Positions 4,344 to 56,512 of a stretch of DNA of 64,000 nucleotides are shown here, piece by piece. The translations under genes were made by a program, and so were the position numbers. The notes under the pieces are model-generated. The model was not told the origin of the DNA, did no database searches, and saw nothing but the letters and a program-made list of their open reading frames with translations. The stretch comes from Patescibacteria group bacterium (lineage in GTDB: Bacteria; Patescibacteriota; Minisyncoccia; Moranbacterales; UBA2206): contig JAKLIG010000002.1 of the NCBI GenBank assembly GCA_022709735.1, positions 1,949 through 65,948 on the forward strand, in the 5' to 3' direction. Every line of letters begins with the position of its first letter. Positions within the stretch are counted from its first letter, which is position 1.

Positions 4344-4636
4344 AAGTTATATTCAGTTTTATTTTTACAATAACCCGACTGTGTTGAAAAGCGTGATGGT
4401 CAAGATCGGAACAAGTGCAACCAAAACGGCAAAATTTATTTCCTCCGATTCTTGCTCTTCTAACGCCCTTTTTTCGCAAGCTGGGCATTTGCATGCTTCT
4501 GTTTCCATATTTTTGTTTTTTACCCCCTTTCCAAAGGGTTTTTAATAATTAAAAAATAAAAAAGGGCGGAATTCACCCGCTCTTTCTATTAGTATTTCTA
4601 TTATACCTGATAATTTGAAAAAAGTCAAGTTTTTTT

Positions 4637-5332
4637 CTAAAGCGTCATGCCTAAAAATAAATTCAACATAAAATTTAGAAAAATTCCAAGCGGACCGGAA
4701 AAGAAAATTATAAAAAATAATAATATTACAAAACCAAATTGCTCAAGCATAAGGAGCATCTCGGTTCGAATCGGAAAAATGGAAAAAAATAATTTCGAGC
4801 CGTCAAGCGGTGGGATTGGAATGAGATTGAAAAAAGCTAAAAAAACATTCCAAAAAATAATTATCACCAAGAGTTCAAAAAAAATGGCATTCATTGATCC
4901 GGAAATTACTTCAGAAATTTTTCCCCAATCATTGAAGTTATAAATTATATCCGCTTTCACGGCCATTGGAAGATTTATAAATTTTGCCAAAAATGCCGCA
5001 ATGATTGCGATAAAAATATTTGAAAGAGGTCCAGCCGCGCCAACCATGGCCGGCCCCCATTTTTGATTTTTTAGATTATACGGATTATACGGCACCGGCT
5101 TTGCTCCGCCGAAAGCAAATTTAAAATTAGTCAGAAGCAACATCAAAACCGGAAGTCCGATTGTCATCCAAGGATCAATATGGCGTATCGGGTTGGCAGT
5201 AATTCTTCCAGCATATTTAGCTGTCGGATCTCCTTGCCAAAGTGCCGCTACTCCGTGCGCCACTTCATGGATAATCAAGCTATAGAGAAGTATGGCGATA
5301 TAAAATGCAATTAAAATTATTTCGTTAAGCAT
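4637..5332 (-). CDS. site-2 protease family (peptidase M50) zinc metalloprotease
   Basis: HEVAHG zinc-binding motif inside a TM helix; polytopic membrane protein. Confidence 0.75.
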   Translation of the reverse strand: MLNEIILIAFYIAILLYSLIIHEVAHGVAALWQGDPTAKYAGRITANPIRHIDPWMTIGLPVLMLLLTNFKFAFGGAKPVPYNPYNLKNQKWGPAMVGAAGPLSNIFIAIIAAFLAKFINLPMAVKADIIYNFNDWGKISEVISGSMNAIFFELLVIIIFWNVFLAFFNLIPIPPLDGSKLFFSIFPIRTEMLLMLEQFGFVILLFFIIFFSGPLGIFLNFMLNLFLGMTL

Positions 5333-5506
5333 AAATGTTATGCTAATCTGCTAATATAAACTAATCCACGAATTGCAAATTCGCATCATTAGCAATTAGC
5401 TGATTGGTATTTATTCGTTAATTAGCATAGTATTGTGATTGCTTGCTATTATTACTTTCTTATGCTAACTTATATTCTGTAATAAATCAAATAACTTAAA
5501 CGATTA

Positions 5507-5673
5507 TGTCTAGAGTATGCGACATTTGCGGCCGAGGATCACAAGTTGGAAACAAGGTTAGCCATTCCAATATTAAGACTCTCCGGAAATATAAAATAAA
5601 CCTGCAAACTAAAAAAATTGCCGGGCAGTCAAAAAAAGTCTGCACGAAATGCATCAAAACCATGGCGAAATAA
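5507..5673 (+). CDS. rpmB: 50S ribosomal protein L28
   Basis: 55-aa ORF absent from the track (<60 aa): MSRVCDICGRGSQVGNKVSHSNIKTLRKYKINLQ... is the L28 signature. Confidence 0.75.
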
Positions 5674-5687
5674 AGTGATTTTAGCTC

Positions 5688-5726
5688 AAAAAAATCCTCT
5701 CCGATTAATTGGAGAGGATTTTTATT
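5688..5726. terminator. bidirectional intrinsic terminator between rpmB (+) and the adk-like gene (-)
   Basis: A-run, ATCCTCTCC-GATTAATT-GGAGAGGAT hairpin, then TTTTATT. Confidence 0.7.
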
Positions 5727-5742
5727 CGCTTACTTTTATATC

Positions 5743-6822
5743 TTAAAGCCCTAGAACCTTAACTAATTGTTTTACAAGAGAAATTGCTACGGCTGGCGCC
5801 ATAAGGCTATAAACTTCCACGCCTTCATCATCCTTAACAGTAAACGGACGCTCGAGCGTTTTTATCTCGCCAGTTTTCTCATCTCGTTCATAATAAAATT
5901 CAGGAGTAAGTTCATATTCATCTACCATTTCCTTGGCTTTTTCGACTGGCACAGCATTTCTAATCATCGCTTTGGCGATTCCGTGAAGAGAAAATATTTT
6001 ATTTATTAATTTATCGTCCATTTCTAATCTATCCCGAAGAGATTCAATGCCTAAATTATCTCCTTCCTTGGCTACCATGCGCGCCTTATTACATTCCGGG
6101 TTGTCGCACATCAGATAAAATTCCTTTTTTTCTTCGTCGTATCCCACAAATTTTGTCGCAAGTAATTTTAGATTTCTTGGGGTGTGACAAATTGGACAAA
6201 CTGCGCGGTATTTCATTCGCTCATCAATCACTGCTTCTGGAATATCGATTGCAATAAAAAGATCCGGGTCTTCACGATAATCAATCATTTGCTTAAAAAA
6301 TAAAGAATATGATATTTGATCAAAATTTCTTGGAAAGCCGTCAACAAAAATCGACTTCTTCCCCATTTTGTCTATTTCTCTTTTGGTAAGCGCCATAACA
6401 AATTCGTCTGGAAGAAGCGTTTTCGTATCACGGTTTAGTAGCGCCTCAATTCCTTGCTCGGGAGTTATGTAGCCTCGATAATTTTTATGCAGATATTCCA
6501 AAAGATTTTTCTTCTCTTCTTTGTTCTCCATTGCCGAATGCACATCTCGAACAACATCTCCCACAGAGATATGCCCGATTTTATTTTTTCCAAAAATTTC
6601 CATTAAAAGTTTTGTATAAGTTCCCTTGCCGGCATTTTTTTTGCCTAAAAAATAAGCAATGAAAGTCTTTCCTTCGTCAAAATATTTTCTTAGCTTTTCA
6701 ATTTCTTCTCCTGCTTTTTTTTCAAAATATTCCTTCCTTTCCGCTAGATCAGAAAGATTGAATTTTTTGTCCACTCCTTCCATTTTCGTTTTCTGCAATG
6801 GAAACTCTTGCTCGTATTTCAT
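5743..6822 (-). CDS. adenylate kinase family protein, unusually long (359 aa) with Zn-LID
   Basis: P-loop GKKNAGKGT, ISVGDVVR, DGFPR and a CxxC...CxxC LID (CPICH...CDNPEC) align with Adk; ~45-aa N-terminal and ~70-aa C-terminal extensions. Confidence 0.65.
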   Translation of the reverse strand: MKYEQEFPLQKTKMEGVDKKFNLSDLAERKEYFEKKAGEEIEKLRKYFDEGKTFIAYFLGKKNAGKGTYTKLLMEIFGKNKIGHISVGDVVRDVHSAMENKEEKKNLLEYLHKNYRGYITPEQGIEALLNRDTKTLLPDEFVMALTKREIDKMGKKSIFVDGFPRNFDQISYSLFFKQMIDYREDPDLFIAIDIPEAVIDERMKYRAVCPICHTPRNLKLLATKFVGYDEEKKEFYLMCDNPECNKARMVAKEGDNLGIESLRDRLEMDDKLINKIFSLHGIAKAMIRNAVPVEKAKEMVDEYELTPEFYYERDEKTGEIKTLERPFTVKDDEGVEVYSLMAPAVAISLVKQLVKVLGL

Positions 6823-6845
6823 AATTTTTTTATTATTTAATGCTA

Positions 6846-6868
6846 ATTAAAAACCTCCTTGCGAGGTA
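6846..6868 (-). terminator. intrinsic terminator downstream of recA
   Basis: ACCTC-CTTGC-GAGGT hairpin followed by a T-run on the minus strand. Confidence 0.55.
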
Positions 6869-6915
6869 TCTGCAATCATATTAACAAACAAACTCTAAAT
6901 AATCAATAGTGGTCA

Positions 6916-7923
6916 TTATTCTTCCGCCTTTTCTCTTTCTTTCAATTTTTCATAAATCCCTTTGGAAATTTCTTTCATAAGTTTCGGGTCCGCTTTGAGC
7001 GTTGCTTTGGCCACTTCCCGACCAACTCCCAGCTTTATTTCTCCAAAGTTAAAAGAATTACCTTTCTTTTCAACCACTTCATATTTTACTCCTGTATCCA
7101 GGATATCTCCAGAAGCGCTGATGCCTTCATTATACATAATATCGAATTCGGCTGTTTTGAATGGCGGAGCAACTTTATTTTTGACAATCTTAATTTTTGT
7201 TCTGTTTCCAACAATGTCTTCGCCTTTTTTGATCTGCGCGCTTCTCCTCACTTCAATTCGAACTGAAGCATAAAACTTTAGAGCGTTTCCTCCTGTGGTC
7301 GTTTCCGGATTGCCAAAAACTATTCCAATTTTCATTCTGATTTGATTGATAAAAATTACCGTGCAATTGGATCGGGAAATTATCGCCGTGAGTTTTCGAA
7401 GCGCTTGAGACATGAGCCTAGCTTGGCGCCCCATATGCTGATCACCCATATCGCCTTCAATTTCCGCTTTTGGCACGAGCGCTGCCACAGAATCAACTAC
7501 AATAATATTCACCTCTCCGGAATTCACCAAAGTTTCCACGATATCCAGCGCTTGTTCACCATTGTCCGGCTGGGAAATCAAAAGATCATTAATATTCACA
7601 CCAATTCTTTTGGCATATTCCGGATCAAGCGCATGTTCCGCATCAATAAACGCTGCCACGCCTCCAGCTTTTTGCGCATTAGCAATGATATGCAAAGTGA
7701 GTGTAGTTTTTCCGCTGGATTCCGGACCATACACCTCTACCACGCGTCCTCTCGGAATTCCGCCAATCCCAAGCGCAATGTCTAGTGAAATCGCTCCGGT
7801 CGGAATTGATTCTACATCTACTTTTTTCACATCCCCAAGTTTCATAATCACGCCTTCACCGAATTTTTCTTTGATTCCTTCAACTAATTCTGTTAATTTT
7901 TTATCATCTTTTTCCTCTTTCAT
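6916..7923 (-). CDS. recA: recombinase RecA
   Basis: Walker [11 protein letters not shown]1/L2 loops, [14 protein letters not shown]. Confidence 0.95.
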
Positions 7924-8098
7924 AAAAATTTTTATCCCCCACCACTTTTGGCTTTCATTATTTTACCTAGACTAAATAAAACTAAAAATTAATTAAAAAC
8001 TTTTTATAATTTTATTTCTTACAAGCTAAAAGTGGTGGGGGATGAATTTTACTAATTATAATGATATCGTATCACTACTTCAAAATTCTGGCAAGTGC

Positions 8099-9118
8099 CT
8101 ATTTTTTAGGCTTATTTTCGGCATTAATAGTCTTGGTTTCTGGAGTAAAAGTCACGCCTTTCACTGCGCCCGAATCCGGACTCAATGCCCCTAACTCTTT
8201 TCCATTAAGCGTAACAAAAGTTGCTTTGCCTTTTCCGGAACTTATCACAATTTTTTCTTTGGCTTCAAATAATTGCACTGCTCCGCTAAGCATCGTGCCA
8301 TCAAAAACTATACTGCCATCCGCTTCTGCGCTTATCCAAACTGGTCCTGGCTCAACCTTAATTTCAATCTTAATTTTATTCTCTGTTATATTTTCTGTTT
8401 TATTTTCCAAAGACGCTTCGTTATTTGTTTCTTCCGGTTCCTTATAATCCGAACGGATGCTCAAATTTTCCACCGACTCTTTGTCAAACTTATTTACTGA
8501 TTTCAGATTAATTGTATTCAATCCGGATTGCAAAGTTAGATTTTCTCGAAATCTTCCATCATCTCCAACCAAAATTGGCTGGTTATTTATAAACAACCTC
8601 GCCTCTTTATCCGTTATGCCTTCGATATAAACAGAATTTCCGGAAACTTGACTATTATTTTGCGGATTGAGAATTACCAAACTTGGGGCATTAGCAAAAG
8701 AATTTATTTCCCGATAAAGCAGAAACAGTCCGGCGAAAACCAACACAATAATTGCCGAGATTAGAATTTTTTTGGGCGTAAAAATAAATGGCGAAATGTT
8801 AACTGGCTTTGATTTTCCCAAATCTTTTTTCTTATTTTTTTTCAAGTTCTCTCGAATTTCTTTTTCTCTTTCATAAAGACGAATAAGAATTTTTTCATCC
8901 ACACCCAAAAAATCAGCATAGCTTCGAAGAAACCCTTTCACATAAACATCCGCCGGAAGTTTTTCCCAAATTCCTTCTTCCAAATATTCCAAATAAGCCG
9001 GTTGGATTTTGGTAAATTTCGAAGCTTCAACAATCGAAGTTCGCTTATCACTTCGCAGTTTTTTCAATTTTTCTCCAAGCGTGAGTGTCCCAACGCTTTT
9101 TTTGGTAAAGCCATTCAT
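8099..9118 (-). CDS. RodZ-like cytoskeleton protein (N-terminal XRE HTH, single TM, C-terminal domain)
   Basis: HTH LGEKLKKLRSDKRTSIVEASKFTKI, then KGFLRSYADFLGVDEK, then a TM helix. Confidence 0.7.
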   Translation of the reverse strand: MNGFTKKSVGTLTLGEKLKKLRSDKRTSIVEASKFTKIQPAYLEYLEEGIWEKLPADVYVKGFLRSYADFLGVDEKILIRLYEREKEIRENLKKNKKKDLGKSKPVNISPFIFTPKKILISAIIVLVFAGLFLLYREINSFANAPSLVILNPQNNSQVSGNSVYIEGITDKEARLFINNQPILVGDDGRFRENLTLQSGLNTINLKSVNKFDKESVENLSIRSDYKEPEETNNEASLENKTENITENKIKIEIKVEPGPVWISAEADGSIVFDGTMLSGAVQLFEAKEKIVISSGKGKATFVTLNGKELGALSPDSGAVKGVTFTPETKTINAENKPKK

Positions 9119-17960: not shown

Positions 17961-18065
17961 AATGCGACTCTAATTTACGAATGAGCATTCGAATGTTTCG
18001 AATGATTCGGTTTTATTCGAGTCATTCGTGTGCAGATTCGAGTCATTCGGGTCGCTTATTAAATT
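17961..18065 (-). repeat. intercistronic ~105-bp palindromic element, subfamily A, copy I (rpoB-rpoC spacer)
   Basis: near-identical to 29149-29266 except that copy lacks here the 20-bp CCTGCC palindrome; built of CATTCGAATG/ATTCGAGT words; terminal inverted repeat GCGACYC...GAGTCGC. Confidence 0.85.
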
Positions 18066-21000
18066 TTAAACTTGATCAATGTCCTGTTCTTCTTTTTCAT
18101 CTTCATCTTTTTTCGCACCCAAGAGTTCTACATTTAGTCCCAATCCCTTGAGTTCGCTCACAAGCACATGAAAAGATGCCGGAACATTCGGACTTTTTAT
18201 CGGTTCGCCTTTGATAATTGACTCATAGGCTTTGCTTCGGCCCATTACATCATCAGATTTTATCGTAAGCATTTCTTGAAGCGTATAAGCCGCGCCATAT
18301 CCTTCCAACGCCCACACTTCCATTTCTCCAAATCTCTGTCCGCCAAATTGCGCTTTTCCACCAAGAGGCTGTTGAGTAATCAATGAATATGGTCCAATTG
18401 AACGCATGTGAATTTTGTCATCCACCAAGTGGTGAAGCTTCATCACATACATAATCCCAACTGTTGATTTATTATCAAATTTTTCTCCGGTCTTTCCATT
18501 TATCAGCTGAACTTTTCCGTCTTCCGGCAATCCGGCTTTTATGAGTTCTTCCTTGATTTGCTCTTCTGTCACACCTTCTAGCGCTGGAGTCGCTGCCTTA
18601 TATCCTAATTTCAAAGCCGCCCAGCCAAGGTGAGTTTCCAAAATTTGTCCGATGTTCATACGACTAGCCACACCCAATGGATTTATTATCATATCTACCG
18701 GAGTACCATCAGGAAGATGAGGCATATCTTCTACCGGAGCAACTCGGGAGATCACACCTTTGTTTCCGTGTCGGCCGGCTAATTTGTCGCCAACCGAAAT
18801 TTTCTTAAGTTGGGCTACCGATACTTGAATTTGTTGAATCACTCCAGTCGGAAGTTTGTCGCCAAGTTCTCGGGAAAATATTTTTATATCCACTACTTTT
18901 CCATATTCACCGTGAGGCAGATAGAGCGAACTGTCTTTCACATCACGGGATTTTTCTCCAAATATTGCGCGAAGTAATCTTTCTTCACTCGTCAAATCGC
19001 CTTCGCCTTTAGGAGAAATTTTTCCAACCAAAATATCACTGGAAGAAACTTCTGCTCCAATTCTGATTATTCCGGTTTCGTCTAAATTTTTCAGCCGTTC
19101 TTCCCCGATGTTTGGAATATCGCGTGTGATAATTTCCGGCCCAAGTTTTGTATCGCGAACATCAATTGAAAAATCTTCAATGTGAATTGAGCTATAGCGG
19201 TCGTCTTCCACTAATTTTTGTGAAATTATAATCGCGTCTTCATAGTTTGATCCTTCCCAAGGAATAAATGCCACCAAAACATTCTGGCCTAAAGATAATT
19301 CTCCTTGATCAGTTGATGCACCGTCCGCCAAAAGCTGTCCTTTCTTCACCATTTGTCCTTTTTCAACTCTAGGGACTTGGTTCATTGAAGTAAACGCGTT
19401 TGATTTTACAAAAGTTTGCAAACGATATTCTCTTTTTAGATATGGTTTTTTCGCCGCCACCGGAGCTTCTTCTTTCACTACGATATGATCACCGTCAACT
19501 TCAATCACTTCTCCATCTGCTTTGGCAATCACCACTTGACCGCTGTCAGCGGCCGCCTTGTCTTCAATGCCCGTTCCAACTAGCGGAGCTTCCGGCTTCA
19601 CGCAGGAAACCGCCTGGCGTTGCATGTTCGAACCCATAAGAGCTCGGTTGGCATCATCATGTTCCAAAAATGGAATGAGTGCTGTCGCTACAGAAATACA
19701 TTGCTTGGCGCTCACATCAATATAATCTAATTTTTCTGCTTCAATTTCTGTTGCTTGGCCTTTCACTCTCGCACCCACAATTTCATCCAAAATATTTCCT
19801 GATTTTGAAATATTAATTCCGGCATGAGCGATATTTTTCCGATCTTCCTTGGCGGCATTAACATATTCAATTTCTCGACTTATCCAAGGTTTGATTTTTA
19901 TATTTTTCTTTTCTTTAATTTTTTCAATTTTCTTTGCCATTTCTTCAGAAATTTCCATTCCAACTTCGAATTCTCCAATTTTTTCATTGAGTATTTTTCC
20001 AGAAATTTTTTCTTCCTTATTTTCCATCTCATGATAAATTTTGAGATATGGCGTTTCTAAAAATCCAAAAGGATTTATTTTTGTATAAGTCGCCAAATGA
20101 CCAACCAATCCGATGTTTGGACCTTCCGGAGTTTCTACCGGACAAATTCGGCCATAATGGGAAGGATGGACATCTCGTACTTCAAAACCGGCGCGTTCTC
20201 TAGTGAGTCCGCCTGGGCCCATCGCGCTGATTCTTCTCTTGTGTTCCAACTCCGCCAAAGGGTTGACTTGATCCATGAATTGGGAGAGTTGAGAACTAGA
20301 AAAAAATTCTTTGATCGCAGCCGCTACCGGACGGGAATTTACTAATTGCCCCGGAACAACTGTTGCGATATCGCAGGTACTCATTCGGTCTTTGATATTT
20401 CTGGCAGTTCTGGCAAGCCCCACGCGTAATTTATTTTGCACTAACTCTCCGACTGATCGCACTCTTCTGTTTCCAAGATGATCAATATCATCCGCGATAG
20501 CTCTTGGATCATTGTTTAACCTGATAATTTCTTTGATTATTAAATTCAAATCTTCTCGCACTAACACCCGATTTTCTTCATCGTCTGGTCGTTCCACTTC
20601 CAATCTTTGGTTCAAGCGATATCGGCCAACTCCGCCAAAGTCATATTTTTCAAAACTAAAAAACATCGAGTCCACCACTTGCTTGGCGTTCGATTCAGTG
20701 GCCAAATCTCCCGGACGAATTCTTTTATATACGTCCTTATATCCTTCGCCTTGATTTTTAGCGACGTCTTTCTGGATAGTCGCATCAATATATTTTGTTT
20801 CCCCGTTGTCGCTGTCTTTAAAAAGATTTAATAGTTGCTGATCAGAAGAATAACCGAAAGCGCGAAGAAGTGAAGTGATGGCGACCTTTCTTTTGCGGTC
20901 GATTTTCACAAAAATCGCTCCATCAAAATCAGTTTCAAGTTCCAGCCAGGCTCCGCGATTTGGAATAATTTTAGCACCAAAAAGTTTTTTGCCTTTGAAA

Positions 21001-24411: not shown

Positions 24412-24477
24412 ATTGCCAATGCTCTTATCTTATATTTAAATATTTTACTCGTCAACTAATTAGCTAAACTTCATAGT

Positions 24478-24611
24478 AAAATCCCGTCCACCTGCCTGAT
24501 TTTCCTATCTAATTATAATTCCTCAATTATTTCAGTTAGATAATCTTTATTCTTAGTTGAGGAAGAATATAGCAAAATAAGAAAATCTGGCAGGCAAGTA
24601 CGGGATTTCAC
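24478..24611. repeat. tRNA-proximal palindromic TIR element, copy 1
   Basis: outer IR AAAATCCCGT.../...ACGGGATTT; inner TIR CCTGCCTGATTTTCC...GAAAATCTGGCAGG; central palindrome CCTCAAT...AGTTGAGG; related to copies at 55752, 56000 and 56405. Confidence 0.75.
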
Positions 24612-29135: not shown

Positions 29136-29148
29136 AAATTATATTTTA

Positions 29149-29266
29149 AATGCGACTCTAATTTACGAACCTGCCTGCCGGCAGGCAGGTGAACATTCGA
29201 ATGTTTCGAATGATTCGGTTTTATTCGAGTCATTCGTGTGCAGATTCGAGTCATTCGGGTCGCTTA
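29149..29266 (-). repeat. intercistronic palindromic element, subfamily A, copy II (tig-clpP spacer), carrying the 20-bp palindrome CCTGCCTGCCGGCAGGCAGG
   Basis: identical to the copy at 17961-18065 except that TGAG is replaced by a 23-bp segment containing the perfect palindrome (approx. 29173-29192). Confidence 0.85.
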
Positions 29267-30547
29267 TTAAATTTTTTCCAGGTATTCAAACACTTTCTCA
29301 TTTTCCAAAACTCCTTTGCTATAAGTATACAATCTTTCCATATCAATATTCTTCTCCATATCTTTGACATTCTTGTAATATTGCAAAGTCTTGTTTATCT
29401 CCGCTTCAATTTCTTCTGATGTCGCTTCCAAACTTTCTAGCTCGGTTATTTTCTTAAGTGCCAGCGCGCTAATTACTCTTTTTTCGGCCTGTGGCTCCCA
29501 GTCATGAATAAGTTCTTCCTTGTCTTTCTTAATTTGCGCCAGATATTGATCAAGATTCATTCCCATCGGCGCCAACTGATATTCAAATTCGTCGAGCATT
29601 TTGTGCGCTTCTTCGTGAACCAAAATTTCCGGCAGTTCTACCTCCGAGTTCTTAATTATTTCTTCAATATACTTGGTTCTTTTTTCGTCTTTAATTTTAT
29701 GCTCATTTTCGTGCTCCATGCCCTCTTCAATATTTTTCTTGAGCGCTTCTAAATTTTCAAATTTCCCTAAGGATTTCGCAAAATCATCATTGATTTCCGG
29801 CGTCTGCCTTTCTTGAACTAAATTTACTTTTACTTTGAAACTCGCTGGCTTTCCGGCTAAATCTTTTTTATGGTAATCAGCTGGGAAATTCAGCTCGAAT
29901 TCTTTTTCTTCTCCCTCTTTCATTCCAATAATTTGCTCTTCAAATCCCGGGATAAAAACTCCTCGGCCAATGATAAGCGGATGTTTTTTGCTCGTTCCAT
30001 TTTCAATTGGGACTCCGCCGATTTTCACCTCAAAGTCAATTTCGACGCTGTCATTTTTTCGTGCCTCACGCATAACTGTCACCAATTTCACCCGGCTGTT
30101 AGCCAATTTTTCAAGTTCCAATTCCAAATCCGCCTTTTCCACTTTCGAAGTCCGGCTTTTGAAATCATTATTAATTTCTTTTATACCTTTGACATATTTT
30201 TCTTTTATCTCAATTTTTGGCATAACAGAAACGATCGCCTTGTATTTCAAATCTTCCCCTTCTTTTATTTCCACTATTTCTACTTTTGGATTGCCGATTG
30301 CTTCAATTTTTTCTTTTAGAATATAATCGACATAACTTTTCTTCACGGCTTTTTCTCCCGCATTATTGAGGATTGTCCCCAATCCGACTTTTTGCTCAAT
30401 TAAATTTCTCGGCGCTTTGCCCGGGCGAAATCCCGGAATTTTTATCTCTTCTGAAATTTCATTGACTGCCGAGTCTAAAAATTTCTCCCATTCTTTCCAA
30501 GGGACAGTTATTTCAAATTCAATTTGCGATTTTGGTAATTTTTTCAT
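29267..30547 (-). CDS. tig: trigger factor
   Basis: ribosome-binding GFRPGKAP motif, PPIase and C-terminal arm; tig-clpP synteny. Confidence 0.9.
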   Translation of the reverse strand: MKKLPKSQIEFEITVPWKEWEKFLDSAVNEISEEIKIPGFRPGKAPRNLIEQKVGLGTILNNAGEKAVKKSYVDYILKEKIEAIGNPKVEIVEIKEGEDLKYKAIVSVMPKIEIKEKYVKGIKEINNDFKSRTSKVEKADLELELEKLANSRVKLVTVMREARKNDSVEIDFEVKIGGVPIENGTSKKHPLIIGRGVFIPGFEEQIIGMKEGEEKEFELNFPADYHKKDLAGKPASFKVKVNLVQERQTPEINDDFAKSLGKFENLEALKKNIEEGMEHENEHKIKDEKRTKYIEEIIKNSEVELPEILVHEEAHKMLDEFEYQLAPMGMNLDQYLAQIKKDKEELIHDWEPQAEKRVISALALKKITELESLEATSEEIEAEINKTLQYYKNVKDMEKNIDMERLYTYSKGVLENEKVFEYLEKI

Positions 30548-34617: not shown

Positions 34618-34769
34618 TTCCGCACCTGCCTGCCAGCAGGCAAATTTAAACAGAAATGGCAGAAAAGAAAAATTTACATTTATAATTATACCACGCTTTT
34701 AAAAAAATAAAAACAGCCCGTAATCCACAGGCTATTTTTATTTTATTTTGAAATTTCAAAATACGCTTT

Positions 34770-41250: not shown

Positions 41251-41583
41251 ATGAATGAAAGAATAAATAAAATCAACGAGCTTATAAAACAACATGTGAA
41301 TGATATCGTTCTCAAAAACCTCTCTTTAAAAGATGGGGTTTTTATTACTATCGCCAAAGTTGACACAACAGAGGATCTTCGTTATACTCGGGTGTTTGTT
41401 AGTATTTTCCCGGAGAAAGAAATTCCTTATGCCACAAAAACTTTGGAAAAAGAACTTTTTGAAATCCAGGGAAAACTTAACAAAAAACTGCATATGCGAC
41501 CACTGCCCAAAATTGAATTCCGTCTTGATATGACAGAATCCAAGGCAGATGAAATAGAAAAAATTTTAAAAGAAATAAATTAG
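41251..41583 (+). CDS. rbfA: ribosome-binding factor A
   Basis: 110 aa; KH-like RbfA motif VFITIAKVDTTEDLRYTRVFVSI; infB-rbfA synteny. Confidence 0.8.
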   Translation: MNERINKINELIKQHVNDIVLKNLSLKDGVFITIAKVDTTEDLRYTRVFVSIFPEKEIPYATKTLEKELFEIQGKLNKKLHMRPLPKIEFRLDMTESKADEIEKILKEIN

Positions 41584-41690
41584 GCGACTCGAATAACTCG
41601 AATTTTCACCCGAATGTTTCGAATTTATTCGAATCATTCGAGTGTTCACCTGCCTGCCGGCAGGCAGGTTCGTAAATTAGAGTCGCTTTT
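41584..41690 (+). repeat. intercistronic palindromic element, subfamily B, copy III (rbfA-nrnA spacer), with the 20-bp CCTGCCTGCCGGCAGGCAGG insert
   Basis: GCGACTCGAATAACTCGAAT...CATTCGAGTGTTCA[CCTGCCTGCCGGCAGGCAGG]TTCGTAAATTAGAGTCGC, then a T-run; starts immediately after the rbfA stop codon. Confidence 0.85.
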
Positions 41691-41694
41691 ATAT

Positions 41695-42654
41695 ATGAAA
41701 AAGTTTTCTCAAGAATTTAATACCCTTAATTTCGTCATCAAAGAATCAACTAACATTCTTCTTTTTGCGCATTCCCGTCCGGATTCTGATACCGTCGGTT
41801 CGGTTTTGGCTCTGCGAGAATATATAAAAAATCTTGGAAAAAATGTTGATATCGCCTGCCTTGATCCCTATCCAGAGTATCTCAAAGATTTGGCGCCAGA
41901 TTATTTTAATTTTCCGGATCATTTAAATCTGGAAAAATATAATTTAATCATCGCTACTGACAGCGTGGAAAGAGGCTTTCAAAAAATTAAGGATAAATTT
42001 ACAGAAAATCAGGTCGTCGCGCTTCTTGATCATCATCCGGATATAACTATTCAAGGTGACATCAATATTATTGAGGCCAGCTATTCTTCCGTTTGTGAAA
42101 TTATTTATAATTTTTTTGAATTTAATAAAATAAAACTCACTCGGCAGATTTCTACTTTTTTACTCTTGGGAATTTTGGGAGACACTGGAATGTTCCAACA
42201 CTCCAATACCACTCCGCGCATTATGGAAATTGCTTCCGCCTTAATGAAAAATGGTGCACCACTTTCAAAAATAATCAGCGTGGCTTTTTCCAATAAAAAT
42301 ATTTCAACTTTGAAACTTTGGGGCCGGGCTTTTGAAAAAGCTAAAATTAATCCAGAAAATGGAATGATCGTTTCATTTATTTCTGAAAAAGAACTCGAAG
42401 AATGCGGTGGCAGCCTTGAAGACATTTCTCAAGTTTCAACTATCCTAAATACAGTCCCTGGAACAAAATTCGCGCTGGTTCTTTCGGAAAGAGGCGATGG
42501 GATAGTCAAGGGCAGTCTTAGGAGCGAAGAATATAAAGGCGTGGATGTTTCGCAAATTGCCGCGCTCTTCGGCGGTGGTGGCCACAAGCTTGCATCAGGT
42601 TTTGAAATTGAAGGAAAAATTGTTGAAACCGAAAATGGCTGGCAGATAATATAG
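41695..42654 (+). CDS. nrnA: DHH-family phosphoesterase NrnA (bifunctional oligoribonuclease/pAp phosphatase)
   Basis: DHH motifs HSRPDSDTVGS, DHH, GGGGH (DHHA1); true start is MKKFSQE at 41695. The track's N-terminal extension is repeat-derived. Confidence 0.75.
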   Translation: MKKFSQEFNTLNFVIKESTNILLFAHSRPDSDTVGSVLALREYIKNLGKNVDIACLDPYPEYLKDLAPDYFNFPDHLNLEKYNLIIATDSVERGFQKIKDKFTENQVVALLDHHPDITIQGDINIIEASYSSVCEIIYNFFEFNKIKLTRQISTFLLLGILGDTGMFQHSNTTPRIMEIASALMKNGAPLSKIISVAFSNKNISTLKLWGRAFEKAKINPENGMIVSFISEKELEECGGSLEDISQVSTILNTVPGTKFALVLSERGDGIVKGSLRSEEYKGVDVSQIAALFGGGGHKLASGFEIEGKIVETENGWQII

Positions 42655-42741
42655 GTGACTCGAATAACTCGAATTTTCACCCGAATGTCTCGAATTTATT
42701 CGAATCATTCGAGTGTTCATTCGTAAATTAGAGTCGCTTTA
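42655..42741 (+). repeat. intercistronic palindromic element, subfamily B, copy IV (nrnA-nfo spacer), without the 20-bp insert
   Basis: identical to copy III except for lack of the 20-bp palindrome at GTTCA^TTCG. Confidence 0.85.
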
Positions 42742-42756
42742 TGCTAAAATAATCTT

Positions 42757-43602
42757 ATGAATATCGGCGCTCACATTTCAATCGCCGGCGGAATTATTGA
42801 AGCCCCCAAAAGAGCTTCCGATTTAGGCTGTGAATGTATGCAAATTTTTACCCGTTCTCCCCAAGGCGGAAAAGCACCAAGCCTCACAAACTCCGTTTGT
42901 GAGGAATTTAAAATTTCAAATTTAAAATTTAAAATTAAGGAGGTTTATATCCATACTCCCTACTACATTAATTTCGCCTCTTCTAATAATCGCATTCGCT
43001 ATGGGTCAGTCAGCGTTGTTCGCGATGAGTTGGAAAGAGGAAATCTCATTGGCGCAAAATATGTCATGACTCATCTTGGCACTGCCAAAGATTTGGGGCA
43101 AAAAGAAGCTACTGCCAAAACTATTAAAATGCTTTCAAAAACTTTGGAAGGATATACTGGAAAAACAAAATTACTTTTAGAAAACAGCGCCGGCGCCGGA
43201 GAAATTATTGGCGATGATCTCTCTGAACTTTCAGAAATTATCAAAGGCGTTGCTTCGGATGCCATCGCTGGAATTTGTCTCGACACCCAACATTCTTTCG
43301 CTTCCGGATATGATTGGCGAAAATCTGATGTAAGGGCAATTCATGAATTGCCCCTGCTAGAAAGAATAGATAAAGAAATTGGACTGGATAAAATAAAATT
43401 AATCCACGCTAATGACAGTCTGACGGATTTCAATTCCAAACGAGACCGCCACGCCCATATTGGCGAAGGAAAAATTGGTTTGGACGCCTTTCAAAACATT
43501 GTCGCCTTTGCTGAGAAAAATAATATAGATATGATCCTAGAAACAGAACATGATAAAGTGAAAAAAGATATTGAAATTTTGAAAAATTTCCGCGATAAAT
43601 AA
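42757..43602 (+). CDS. nfo: deoxyribonuclease IV (endonuclease IV, AP endonuclease family 2)
   Basis: TIM-barrel motifs HAPYLINLAS-like, HLGT, ICLDTQHSFASGYD, HANDS...RDRHAHIGEGKIG, ILETE; contains an in-frame 22-bp palindrome at 43333-43355 coding AIHELPL. Confidence 0.85.
   Translation: MNIGAHISIAGGIIEAPKRASDLGCECMQIFTRSPQGGKAPSLTNSVCEEFKISNLKFKIKEVYIHTPYYINFASSNNRIRYGSVSVVRDELERGNLIGAKYVMTHLGTAKDLGQKEATAKTIKMLSKTLEGYTGKTKLLLENSAGAGEIIGDDLSELSEIIKGVASDAIAGICLDTQHSFASGYDWRKSDVRAIHELPLLERIDKEIGLDKIKLIHANDSLTDFNSKRDRHAHIGEGKIGLDAFQNIVAFAEKNNIDMILETEHDKVKKDIEILKNFRDK
43333..43355. repeat. REP-like palindrome AGGGCAATTCATGAATTGCCCT (copy A, inside the nfo CDS)
   Basis: perfect 22-bp palindrome; related copies at 43606-43630 and 43925-43952. 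Confidence 0.85.
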
Positions 43603-43605
43603 TCG

Positions 43606-43636
43606 TAGGGGCGATTCACGAATCGCCCCTTTTTAA
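43606..43636 (+). terminator. REP-like palindrome copy B acting as terminator-like hairpin after nfo
   Basis: TAGGGGCGATTCACGAATCGCCCCT followed by TTTTTAAAT, 4 nt after the nfo stop. Confidence 0.65.
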
Positions 43637-43702
43637 ATATACGCAAAACAAAAACAGAAAACCAAACCGTCTCCAAAATTTTGATTATTCCCAAAATGGG
43701 AT

Positions 43703-43727
43703 GTACCTGCCTGCCGGCAGGCAGGTT
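43703..43727. repeat. 20-bp palindrome CCTGCCTGCCGGCAGGCAGG at the truncated 5' end of the RAYT-like gene
   Basis: perfect palindrome GTACCTGCCTGCCGGCAGGCAGGTTTT immediately upstream of the GTG start. Confidence 0.85.
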
Positions 43728-43729
43728 TT

Positions 43730-44170
43730 GTGACAATTTGCACGAAAGACCGGGAAGAATTATTTGGAGAAATTAAAAATGGAGAAATGGTTTTGAATGA
43801 ATTGGGAAAAATCGTTTTTAAAAATTTAAAAAATATTCCATATTATTTTGAAAATATAAATTTGGATAAATTTATTGTGATGCCAAATCACGTTCATTTA
43901 ATTCTTGAAATTAACAAAAATATCGTAGGGGCAATTCATGAATTGCCCCTACAAAAACGGCGGAATATGTTGATTCCGAAAATAATCGGCAAATTTAAAA
44001 TGTTATCCGCCAAAGAAATAAATATTCTGGCAAATAATTCTGGGAATCCATTATGGCAACGAAATTATTACGACCATATTATCCGAAACGAAATTGAATT
44101 AAACAAAATTCGCGAATATATATTGGAAAATCCGAAAAATTGGGAACGCGATAGAAATAATATTGTGTAG
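43730..44170 (+). CDS. IS200/IS605-type HuH tyrosine transposase, REP-associated (RAYT)-like, N-terminally truncated (possible pseudogene)
   Basis: HuH motif FIVMPNHVHLILE and catalytic-Tyr motif WQRNYYDHIIRNE; TICTKDREELFGEIKNGEMVLNELGKIV matches this family. GTG start only; upstream in-frame region has no ATG and is occupied by the 20-bp palindrome. Contains palindrome copy C (43925-43952). Confidence 0.7.
   Translation: MTICTKDREELFGEIKNGEMVLNELGKIVFKNLKNIPYYFENINLDKFIVMPNHVHLILEINKNIVGAIHELPLQKRRNMLIPKIIGKFKMLSAKEINILANNSGNPLWQRNYYDHIIRNEIELNKIREYILENPKNWERDRNNIV
43925..43952. repeat. REP-like palindrome GTAGGGGCAATTCATGAATTGCCCCTAC (copy C, inside the RAYT-like CDS)
   Basis: perfect 28-bp palindrome coding VGAIHELPLQ. 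Confidence 0.85.
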
Positions 44171-44265
44171 GGGCAGACCTTGCATCTGTCCTTTTTTATA
44201 TTCACCCGTTTACCCAAATAAAAATCGGCAGGAACCACGATGGACTCCTGCCGAGTTAATAAACG

Positions 44266-44643
44266 CTAGCAACAATTTAATCTAATATAAACAACATCCT
44301 TGGCTCTTTTTGAAAGAAAATCATTAATTTGCTTGATATGATTTATGGCATATTCTTTATTCGTAGGAGATCCGGATACAAAAATTATTTTTTTTACCTC
44401 AGAAAGAGCCTTCTTCATTGCCTCTGCAATTTTTTCCGTGTTACAGCAAACGCATTCAGTTGTAAAAAATCCTACCTTAGTTTCCAAATCGTTAGTAATT
44501 CCAAGCCCTTTCATATGAACTCTCCATTGATCTTCCGTTAGTCCGCAACCATTCTTATAGAAAAAGAATCTGGCTTTTCTAGGGTATAATTCATTTTTTA
44601 CCATTTGCATAATACAGTCATAATATTCCTCCTTAATGCTCAT
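44266..44643 (-). CDS. hypothetical Cys-rich protein
   Basis: 125 aa with CG..., ECVCCN and C-terminal CC. Confidence 0.3.
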   Translation of the reverse strand: MSIKEEYYDCIMQMVKNELYPRKARFFFYKNGCGLTEDQWRVHMKGLGITNDLETKVGFFTTECVCCNTEKIAEAMKKALSEVKKIIFVSGSPTNKEYAINHIKQINDFLSKRAKDVVYIRLNCC

Positions 44644-55680: not shown

Positions 55681-55752
55681 AGCGGGTAACGGGAATCGAA
55701 CCCGTCGCTCGTCCTTGGCAAGGACGTATATTAGCCACTATACGATACCCGC
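55681..55752 (-). tRNA. tRNA-Gly(GCC)
   Basis: GCGGGTA...anticodon loop TTGCCAA...CGGGTTCGATTCCCG TTACCCGC. Confidence 0.85.
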
Positions 55753-55890
55753 CTGCCTGATTTGCTTACTTTATTATTTATCCCCAACTATTTAAGTTAT
55801 ATAAATTTAATTCTTAGTTGAGACTATTTGATAAAATAAGCAAATCTGGCAGGCACGCCCACCTTGAGCAAGTTTGGCAGGCACGCCCTT
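55752..55890. repeat. tRNA-proximal palindromic TIR element, copy 2 (abuts the tRNA-Gly 5' end)
   Basis: CCTGCCTGATTTGC...GCAAATCTGGCAGGCACGCCC, plus a second GGCAGGCACGCCC 16 bp later. Confidence 0.7.
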
Positions 55891-55927: not shown

Positions 55928-55999
<72 letters not shown>

Positions 56000-56106
56000 C
56001 TACCTAATTTTCCTATCTTATTATAATTCCTCAACTGTTTCAGTTATATAATCTCTATTCTTAGTTGAGGTAAAATATAACAAAATAAGAAAATTTGGCA
56101 GGTAAA
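56000..56106. repeat. tRNA-proximal palindromic TIR element, copy 3 (abuts the tRNA-Phe 5' end)
   Basis: CCTACCTAATTTTCC...CCTCAACTG...CAGTTGAGG...GGAAAATTTGGCAGG; ~97% identical to copy 4. Confidence 0.8.
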
Positions 56107-56374: not shown

Positions 56375-56410
56375 AACGAGGTGCTCTAGCCATTGAGCTA
56401 AGCGTGCCTG
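56375..56410 (-). pseudogene. tRNA 5'-half remnant (acceptor, D-arm, start of anticodon arm)
   Basis: GGCACGC TTAGCTCAATGGCTAGAGCA CCTCG TTCAT... then no 3' half; D-arm identical to the adjacent tRNA-Val; abutted by TIR-element copy 4. Confidence 0.55.
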
Positions 56411-56512
56411 CCTAATTTTCCTATCTTATTATAATTCCTCAACTGTTTCAGTTATATAATCTTTATTCTTAGTTGAGGTAAAATATAACAAAGTAAGAAA
56501 ATTTGGCAGGCG
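56405..56512. repeat. tRNA-proximal palindromic TIR element, copy 4
   Basis: GCCTGCCTAATTTTCC...GGAAAATTTGGCAGGCGAG; near-identical to copy 3. Confidence 0.8.

Follow-up and report, generated by a model that had tools for sequence, protein, structure and literature searches.

A probable, recently inactivated REP-RAYT module with palindromes inside and beside its gene in a Candidatus Moranbacteria genome

Introduction

The DNA considered here, referred to as the window, is a stretch of 64 kb from a member of Candidatus Moranbacteria (Patescibacteria, also known as the candidate phyla radiation, CPR; contig JAKLIG010000002.1, positions 1,949 to 65,948), and is AT-rich, with 36.5% GC. It carries nfo, the gene for deoxyribonuclease IV, followed by a gene with the motifs of a Y1 HUH transposase, and copies of a GC-rich palindrome are found between the two genes, within the transposase gene and, in frame, within nfo. 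This raises the question of whether the palindromes are repetitive extragenic palindromic (REP) sequences belonging to the adjacent gene as to a REP-associated tyrosine transposase (RAYT), whether that gene is still active, and whether it could have seeded all of the palindromes in the window, as was suggested in a preliminary description. The evidence given below indicates that the locus is probably a REP-RAYT module that was inactivated recently. Its type is, with the same confidence, that of TnpA_REP subclass 2.4, which is RAYT group 4, assigned from the features described for that subclass.

Results

The transposase gene

The open reading frame (ORF) at 43730-44170, which gene callers start at GTG 43730, contains both of the motifs noticed in the preliminary description, the HuH motif MPNHVHLIL and the Y motif WQRNYYDHII, and scores 33.6 bits against Pfam PF01797 (Y1_Tnp), above the gathering threshold of 23. 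For wider comparison a repaired protein was used, a conceptual 170-aa joining of the N-terminal fragment described below and the main ORF. Its top NCBIfam match is NF047646 (REP_Tyr_transpos), with 69.7 bits versus 22.7 bits for the IS200 model NF033573, the latter falling short of its cutoff of 55, and the best PDB sequence match is 4ER8, the E. coli TnpA_REP, at an identity of about 15%; both agree with the earlier placement of the gene in the REP-associated subgroup. Hundreds of homologs, 170-230 aa long, can be aligned to 96-100% of the repaired protein, and such homologs are common in Patescibacteria. Its AlphaFold (AF2) model, with a predicted local distance difference test score (pLDDT) of 82.7, was compared with the PDB using Foldseek, and the top 30 matches are all Y1 transposases (ISDra2, IS608, IS200 TnpA and 4ER8; E 1.7e-7 to 5.5e-5), with 4ER8 having the highest TM-score on the query (0.56) and the best coverage among the fold matches.

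The sole internal segment of the model with a pLDDT below 50 is the peptide specified by one of the palindromes (copy C, residues 91-101). The intact ortholog of a related Moranbacterium (locus L001, protein P0003, 82% identical) ends about 30 aa past the Y motif, and the last helix of the model, H145-164, lies close to the end of the 170 residues, so there is no C-terminal extension. The HuH and Y motifs are separated by about 58 aa, which includes a single REP unit; in homologs the distance can exceed 130 aa. A motif search of the window found no second Y1 gene and no GIY-YIG gene. Judged by its sequence, the gene is one for a Y1 HUH enzyme of the REP-associated type.

Palindromes inside and beside the gene

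The sequence GGGGCRATTCAYGAATYGCCCC occurs three times in the window, at 43333-43354 (with one mismatch), 43608-43629 and 43928-43949, against 0.00 chance matches to the pattern expected from 100 shuffles, so that the three palindromes reported previously are indeed present and far beyond chance. The 8-mer GTAGGGGC is found four times in the 64 kb, where 0.4 occurrences are expected, and every one lies inside the REP locus. The fourth (44167-44174) overlaps the RAYT stop codon and stands at the head of copy D, a weak hairpin with a T-run after it; copy D resembles the GGGGCAGAC…GTCTGCCCC REP type of locus L071. The copies (Table 1) vary in form: copy A contains a 20-bp perfect palindrome (43334-43353) and has the head GTAA; copy B has, at 43608-43629, a perfect stem of 11 bp whose 2-nt centre is not palindromic, with a single foot and a GGGG base; and copy C, which can be written GTAG-GGGCAATTCATGAATTGCCC-CTAC, codes for VGAIHELPL in the loop after the HuH strand, between H80 and Y137. 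Copies A and C are identical at 26 of 28 nt, and the head GTA[GA]GGGC is common to all four. Folded as single-stranded DNA (ssDNA), copies A, B and C reach -7.6, -11.2 and -12.7 kcal/mol, respectively (z = -7.2 for copy C), and the GTAG foot is present at the hairpins of B and C.

Palindromes with a GT[AG]G foot flank the RAYT gene, B upstream (43605-43630) and the decayed D downstream (44165-44193), and with C inside the gene the earlier picture of a transposase bracketed by and containing palindromes is upheld. A scan of the window for GC-rich hairpins with perfect stems found no further member of the family outside 43330-44193. The REP family is therefore local, with three to four copies in 870 bp, and not pervasive, the one copy dispersed from the RAYT gene being copy A in nfo. 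The proposal that the RAYT seeded palindromes throughout the window is thus not borne out, the more so as a second palindrome, P, is without a GTAG foot or a demonstrated link to the RAYT (see below). A terminator scan flags B and D, each with a T-run after its hairpin; B is likely to be the terminator for nfo, and termination is most likely the present role of both B and D.

Weight had been given to the fact that copies A and C both encode AIHELPL, but this is forced, since the remaining two REP frames contain TAG and TGA. Nothing relevant to the AIHELPL peptide was found in the literature searched. No Rfam family matches the REPs, P or a TCGAAT-rich element described below, either in the window at gathering thresholds or in 41400-44400 at E <= 1; the scans returned tRNAs and one chance miRNA-like match on copy C, and nothing else. 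The exact REP core of the window is also present eight times within 14.8 kb of a predicted viral contig, L252 (IMG/VR contig 3300029959_001594).

Table 1. Positions in the window of the REP-RAYT locus, nfo, palindrome P and the TCGAAT-rich elements.
Feature	Position	Strand	Description
nfo (deoxyribonuclease IV), apparently intact	42757-43602	+	TIGR00587, 216.7 bits (cutoff 129.65)
REP copy A	43330-43357	+	GTAAGGGCAATTCATGAATTGCCCCTGC; in frame in nfo; codes V192-L200 (VRAIHELPL)
REP copy B	43605-43635	+	GTAGGGGCGATTCACGAATCGCCCCT then TTTTT; upstream flank of RAYT gene
RAYT 5' fragment	43638-43705	+	encodes YTQNKNRKPNRLQNFDYSQNGM(Y); out of frame with main ORF; without start codon
Palindrome P in RAYT	43706-43725	.	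CCTGCCTGCCGGCAGGCAGG; exact 20-nt gap versus L001, no target duplication
RAYT pseudogene (predicted), main body (TnpA_REP-like Y1 HUH)	43727-44170	+	HuH MPNHVHL, Y motif WQRNYYDHII
REP copy C	43925-43952	.	GTAGGGGCAATTCATGAATTGCCCCTAC; 28-bp perfect 'double-foot' palindrome; in frame in RAYT
REP-like copy D, decayed	44165-44199	+	GTAGGGGCAGACCTTGCATCTGTCC then T-run; overlaps RAYT stop
Palindrome P, second copy	41649-41668	.	inside TCGAAT-rich element 41570-41691
Palindrome P, third copy	29170-29189	.	same site of reverse-orientation TCGAAT-rich element (29147-29277)
TCGAAT-rich element, ~100 nt	17961-18067; 29147-29277; 41570-41691; 42646-42745	-; -; +; +	inverted ends GCGACTC…GAGTCGC

The internal hairpin in homologous loci

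Eighty homologous loci were sampled from species-representative genomes belonging to more than 15 phyla. In 59 of them the coding sequence contains a GC-rich hairpin whose stem is perfect and at least 8 bp long, at a median position of +262 nt, and 49 of these 59 hairpins have a GT[AG]G/C[TC]AC foot, the usual form being GTAGGGGC-N6/N6-GCCCCTAC. At the protein level, VGAIHELPLQ or a variant of it (VGAVHEPPLQ, VGAIRELPLQ or a tandem HELPLHELPL) is found at the same position in homologs from Moranbacteria, Omnitrophica, Brocadiales, Planctomycetes, Zixibacteria, Bacteroidota and other taxa. The hairpin core is repeated outside the gene (±5 kb) in 35 of the 80 loci, with a copy within 400 nt upstream in 27, and in many loci (L030, L033, L039, L080 and L081) one identical sequence is found upstream, inside and downstream. 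The arrangement had been considered unusual, an opinion that can no longer be held given the number of loci with an internal hairpin, the many homologs in Patescibacteria and the intragenic REPs already published for repair genes (PMC3733652). An extreme array is seen in L055, a Deferrisomatales metagenome-assembled genome (MAG), where GGGCGACGCATGCGTCGCCC occurs 24 times in 4599-8285 around a RAYT homolog, with GTAG and CTAC feet alternating.

Covariation was examined in 53 sequences that were anchored solely on a 5' GT[AG]GGG inside the gene, without selection for palindromes. In this set, 73.5% of cells pair, double-sided changes number 80 versus 27.5±4.9 in shuffles (a value reached by none of 500), and the covariation score of 0.340 compares with no more than 0.166 for slid partners. 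Every Watson-Crick type is represented at the four inner pairs. The L001 ortholog provides a near example, as its hairpin, GTAGGGGCGGTTCATGAACCGCCCCTAC, and copy C are exactly two compensatory pairs apart.

Lesions of the RAYT gene

Alignment of the DNA with that of the intact L001 ortholog shows that the ATG has been lost, that an exact 20-nt block, palindrome P, has been inserted in a Tyr codon (between GMY and FVTICT), and that hairpin D has taken the place of the conserved AENILM that should follow …DRNN, the alignment diverging exactly there. The insertion of P shifts the frame and interrupts beta-strand 1 (E21-29 in the model). The preliminary description had taken the N-terminus to be missing, but it is encoded in another frame by the 5' fragment (Table 1), the translation of which aligns with the N-termini of homologs, including the nearly invariant residues R11, L12, D16, Y17, S18, G21 and Y23. 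The ratio of nonsynonymous to synonymous divergence (dN/dS) between the window RAYT and that of L001 is 0.10 at a dS of about 1.1, so purifying selection acted over most of the divergence and the inactivation is recent. As far as the alignment can tell, three lesions have recently turned the gene into a pseudogene, which bears out the earlier suspicion that it might be inactive, and the REPs of a dead gene would be fossils.

nfo as a host of insertions

The nfo gene keeps all of its metal-ligand columns (H66, H106, E142, D176, H179, H217, D230, H232 and E262), and its dN/dS versus the ortholog in L006 is 0.115. When 28 orthologs were aligned, most were found to read GYDWRDFE-KTLKKID without any insert, and the site is also empty in the DNA of L008. 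The window nfo and one ortholog (P0122) have seven extra codons (VRAIHELPL). Other Moranbacteria have another REP at precisely this position, the seven extra codons of five further orthologs reading VRTGRDLSL or a decayed version. The two types of insert, GTAAGGGCAATTCATGAATTGCCCCT and GTAAGGACAGGTCGCGACCTGTCCCT, have equal length and frame and are four compensatory pairs apart. The nfo model places copy A in a loop of low confidence, where pLDDT drops below 50 for residues 195-197, and this location, the retained ligands and the low dN/dS together make copy A a tolerated net insertion of seven codons, as the preliminary description had envisaged. In a rough neighbour-joining tree (short, unbootstrapped) the insert-bearing sequences are scattered among empty ones, pointing to repeated gain, precise loss or in-place replacement. 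The preliminary description had also set out what would speak against mobility, namely a palindrome conserved within the transposase coding sequence of unrelated taxa without extragenic copies, and an nfo segment ancestral in orthologs. Conservation of the AIHELPL palindrome within the coding sequence does extend to unrelated phyla. Extragenic copies are nevertheless present in 35 of the 80 loci, nor is the nfo segment ancestral, so that mobility is not refuted.

The nfo genes of other Moranbacteria and Patescibacteria have short in-frame inserts at a second site, GVRTGLKPVPS, apparently GTAAGGACAGGT…ACCTGTCC (P0128, P0182 and P0186, A2 columns ~195-202; also P0228 and P0160), and longer inserts are present in some of them. 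The gene seems to be a recurrent host of REP-like insertions in these groups. A further hairpin in the window nfo, CCTCACAAACTCCGTTTGTGAGG at 42882-42904, has a 10-bp stem; comparison with the orthologs shows it to be no insertion, and the palindrome is probably due to chance.

Gene order is conserved across rbfA-DHH-nfo-…-TrmB. L001 and L006 represent a relative in which the interval between nfo and TrmB is without a RAYT (L006 5001-7448) and the intact RAYT (L001 6001-6516) is found elsewhere, after a 615-aa ORF and before another TrmB-family gene, so the gene has moved or was acquired separately. The REP in the nfo of this relative (AATT version) differs from the REP inside its own RAYT (GGTT/AACC version).

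Palindrome P and the TCGAAT-rich element

The 20-nt palindrome that interrupts the RAYT gene has three perfect copies in the window and one that has decayed (34625-34644), and as ssDNA it forms a hairpin of -9.7 kcal/mol. Outside the RAYT gene the perfect copies lie in a TCGAAT-rich element, where P is found at the same point (TCA-P-TTCG) in two of the four elements. The filled site at 41649 reads TTCA-P-TTCG versus TTCATTCG in the empty paralogous copy at 42646-42745, and the segment 29190-29275 of the other filled element is 99% identical to the P-free copy at 17982-18067. At all three filled sites, compared with an empty paralogous element or an orthologous gene, the gain is of exactly 20 nt, without duplication.

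At least 120 metagenome contigs (GC 0.29-0.71) and 35 IMG/VR stretches contain the 20-mer without a single change; its unit boundaries are sharp and its flanks are not conserved, and additional copies in the metagenome loci differ by transitions. It is mostly extragenic, as only 19% of P sites (with P deleted) lie in a long stop-free frame versus 67% of random positions. It is frequent in short-repeat arrays, at the apex of existing hairpins and in the loops of tRNA or tRNA-like genes, and was found once (L131) inside another RAYT gene. Examples in the D-, variable- or T-loop of tRNA or tRNA-like sequences are L162 640-700 and 815-880, L168 1-60 and L241 ~490-560, and further ones occur in L133 ~770-830, L124 ~325-375, L211 and L234. 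Several of these P-bearing tRNA-like sequences, which ARAGORN does not call, lie directly upstream of a small GIY-YIG gene. Such genes are also the only neighbours of P that recur, at 8 of 155 loci, which is too weak to call a shared neighbour. For the 20-mer and its 12-14-mers, nothing relevant was found in the literature searched.

P as a substrate of the RAYT was rejected for its lack of a GTAG foot and of a conserved flank, and for its absence from the 694 kb that surround 80 RAYT homologs in other phyla; there is no evidence linking the RAYT to the making of P. A library or assembly artefact was likewise rejected: the insertions are exact and the sequence around them is contiguous, JGI, NCBI and ENA records agree on the truncated ORF, mutated copies exist (e.g., L005, an NCBI MAG), and the contigs come from many projects. 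Tentatively, P might be an ultra-small mobile or templated insertion unit, undescribed and independent of GTAG-REP/RAYT systems.

The TCGAAT-rich elements are intergenic, and each of them ends 15-30 nt ahead of a start codon, the genes that follow being a 1207-aa ORF, a 194-aa ORF, a DHH phosphoesterase gene and nfo. They could be promoter-bearing miniature inverted-repeat transposable elements or regulatory elements. The window also has 121-nt direct repeats of 60-93% identity (24474-24594, 55735-55855, 55982-56102 and 56390-56510), which adjoin tRNA genes of a cluster at 55.6-56.7 kb, with one copy near tRNA-Pro/Gly at 24.3 kb.

Discussion

How the module may have worked and died

By analogy with E. 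coli TnpA_REP and the TnpA proteins of IS200/IS605, the intact gene would have encoded a Y1 HUH enzyme of about 171 aa that bound the GTAG-footed hairpin on ssDNA and cut and rejoined at its foot, an activity that may have copied or moved REP units of 28 nt. The layout would have been that of the subfamily, with B just upstream, C in frame in a disordered loop after the HuH strand and D, since decayed, downstream. Copy A would then have landed in the neighbouring nfo, in the sole stop-free REP frame, adding seven residues to a surface loop of a protein that appears to have stayed functional. Finally, the RAYT would have died by loss of its start codon, by the frameshifting insertion of the unrelated P, and by replacement of its 3' end with D. 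The sequences, their homology, the layout across the family, the covariation, the insertion polymorphism and the lesions are shown directly, whereas the catalytic activity, the ssDNA mechanism and the placement of copy A by this enzyme are inferred.

Several observations weigh against a REP-RAYT module of this type. No dispersed REP family is seen in the 64-kb window, which covers part of a contig of roughly 200 kb, and the related contigs L001 and L006 have one copy each. The hairpin of copy D is weak (-3.7 kcal/mol, z = -1.55), and the GTAG feet of B and D are on the same strand, when classical flanking REPs are inverted. The NF047646 cutoff of 80 is reached neither by the repaired protein nor by the intact ortholog P0003 (63.3 bits), and the HuH-Y distance is shorter than the subclass 2.4 median of 88 aa.

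Alternative explanations

It could be argued that the internal palindrome belongs permanently to the gene and has a function there, such as that of an autoregulatory DNA or RNA hairpin which the enzyme binds in its own gene or mRNA, and that the flanking and nfo copies arose by gene conversion. Its near-constant position (median +262 nt, in 59 of 80 homologs across phyla), the conservation of VGAIHELPLQ in many taxa, a structure maintained by covariation and the small number of REP copies near the gene would all fit this idea. A fixed part should not, however, be lacking altogether from 21 of the 80 homologs, nor vary in length and copy number as it does, with tandem or duplicated units in P0011, P0060, P0085 and L045, and the internal sequence varies in step with the extragenic REPs found in the same genome (L033, L039, L055, L080 and L081). 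The encoded peptide is disordered in the model, the nfo site is polymorphic among orthologs in both presence and REP type, and the internal copy was read as a REP insertion by Quentin et al. 2018 (PMC6006769). This explanation is unlikely. Even less needs to be conceded to the view that the hairpins are ordinary intrinsic terminators or chance palindromes unrelated to the Y1 gene. It can point to the T-runs after B and D and to the terminator scan that picks up both; but A and C are located within coding sequences and agree at 26 of 28 nt, the GTA[GA]GGGC head occurs in all four copies, chance matches to the palindrome are expected zero times, and the same layout recurs around homologs in more than 15 phyla, with covariation, so that this view is effectively refuted.

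A separate issue is whether the disrupted RAYT still gives an active enzyme, either from the GTG at 43730 or by frameshifting across the hairpin. P supplies a Shine-Dalgarno-like GCAGG 4 nt upstream of this GTG, the ORF runs for 146 codons without an internal stop and has the low dN/dS versus L001, and it is predicted by gene callers in three sources (P0001, P0002 and P0004). The product of the GTG would nevertheless be without the 24 N-terminal residues, among them the seven nearly invariant ones (R11 to Y23) and half of beta-strand 1, and its conserved C-terminus is replaced. The upstream part offers no in-frame start, as there is no ATG, GTG or TTG after TAA 43635, and the dN/dS value reflects a long shared history at dS ~1.1 and not present constraint. 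Continued activity is therefore very unlikely, and the preferred reading remains that of a recently inactivated REP-RAYT module.

Comparison with known systems

Subclass 2.4 has been described as having double-foot REPs or canonical long ones with three G-C pairs at the stem base, in-frame REPs between HuH and Y, and a highly variable HuH-Y distance with a median of 88 aa (PMC6006769, Quentin et al. 2018, BMC Genomics 19:475), and RAYT group 4 as having low-copy flanking 16-mers and a scattered distribution (PMC5581495, Bertels et al. 2017). The locus shares with them a Y1 HUH enzyme without a C-terminal extension domain, REPs that flank the gene, double-foot REPs (5' GT[AG]G, 3' C[TC]AC), low repeat copy numbers and an occurrence in scattered phyla, with many homologs in Cyanobacteria, Bacteroidota and Chloroflexota. 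It differs in its host, the CPR/Patescibacteria being a group not found mentioned in PMC6006769 or PMC5581495, in that the gene here appears to be a pseudogene, and in a HuH-Y spacing at the short end.

The HuH and Y motifs and the fold are the same as in the E. coli TnpA_REP of the REP-BIME (bacterial interspersed mosaic element) system (Ton-Hoang 2012; Messing 2012, PDB 4ER8; Corneloup 2021, PMC8266576), which also has GTAG at the foot of a GC-rich hairpin and a single-copy gene beside its REPs. In contrast, the E. coli enzyme belongs to subclass 2.2 (group 2), its REPs number in the hundreds, have imperfect, bulged stems and are arranged in BIMEs, there is no REP inside the gene, and sequence identity to the RAYT described here is only about 15%. 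The TnpA proteins of IS200/IS605 (IS608, ISDra2) have the same Y1 HUH fold, and presumably share recognition of ssDNA hairpins and insertion without target duplication. Unlike those elements, the locus has no distinct left-end and right-end hairpins and no tnpB; the same REP type is found on both sides and inside the gene, which is present as one copy in the window with no sign of multiple copies.

Intragenic GTAG REPs were described earlier, with replication and repair genes being frequent hosts (PMC3733652, Di Nocera et al. 2013). Copy A is similar to these GTAG/CGTC REPs and to the Rickettsia palindromic elements (RPEs) in being an in-frame palindromic insert in a loop or linker of a gene that is apparently still functional. 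It differs from the published cases in that the host gene is nfo in Moranbacteria, and in that two REP types are found at the same codon position across lineages.

Conclusions

The locus most probably belongs to a subclass that has been described before, with the layout of a textbook case but no longer alive, and palindrome P is the only part of it that might be new. Its interest lies in the extension of the REP-RAYT subclass to a CPR (Moranbacteria) genome and in what appears to be a clean and dated case of the death of such a module, with three independent lesions in a gene whose coding signal is still intact. A single nfo codon holds different versions of a REP across related lineages, and this site, while leaving the current picture unchanged, is useful for the study of REP turnover.

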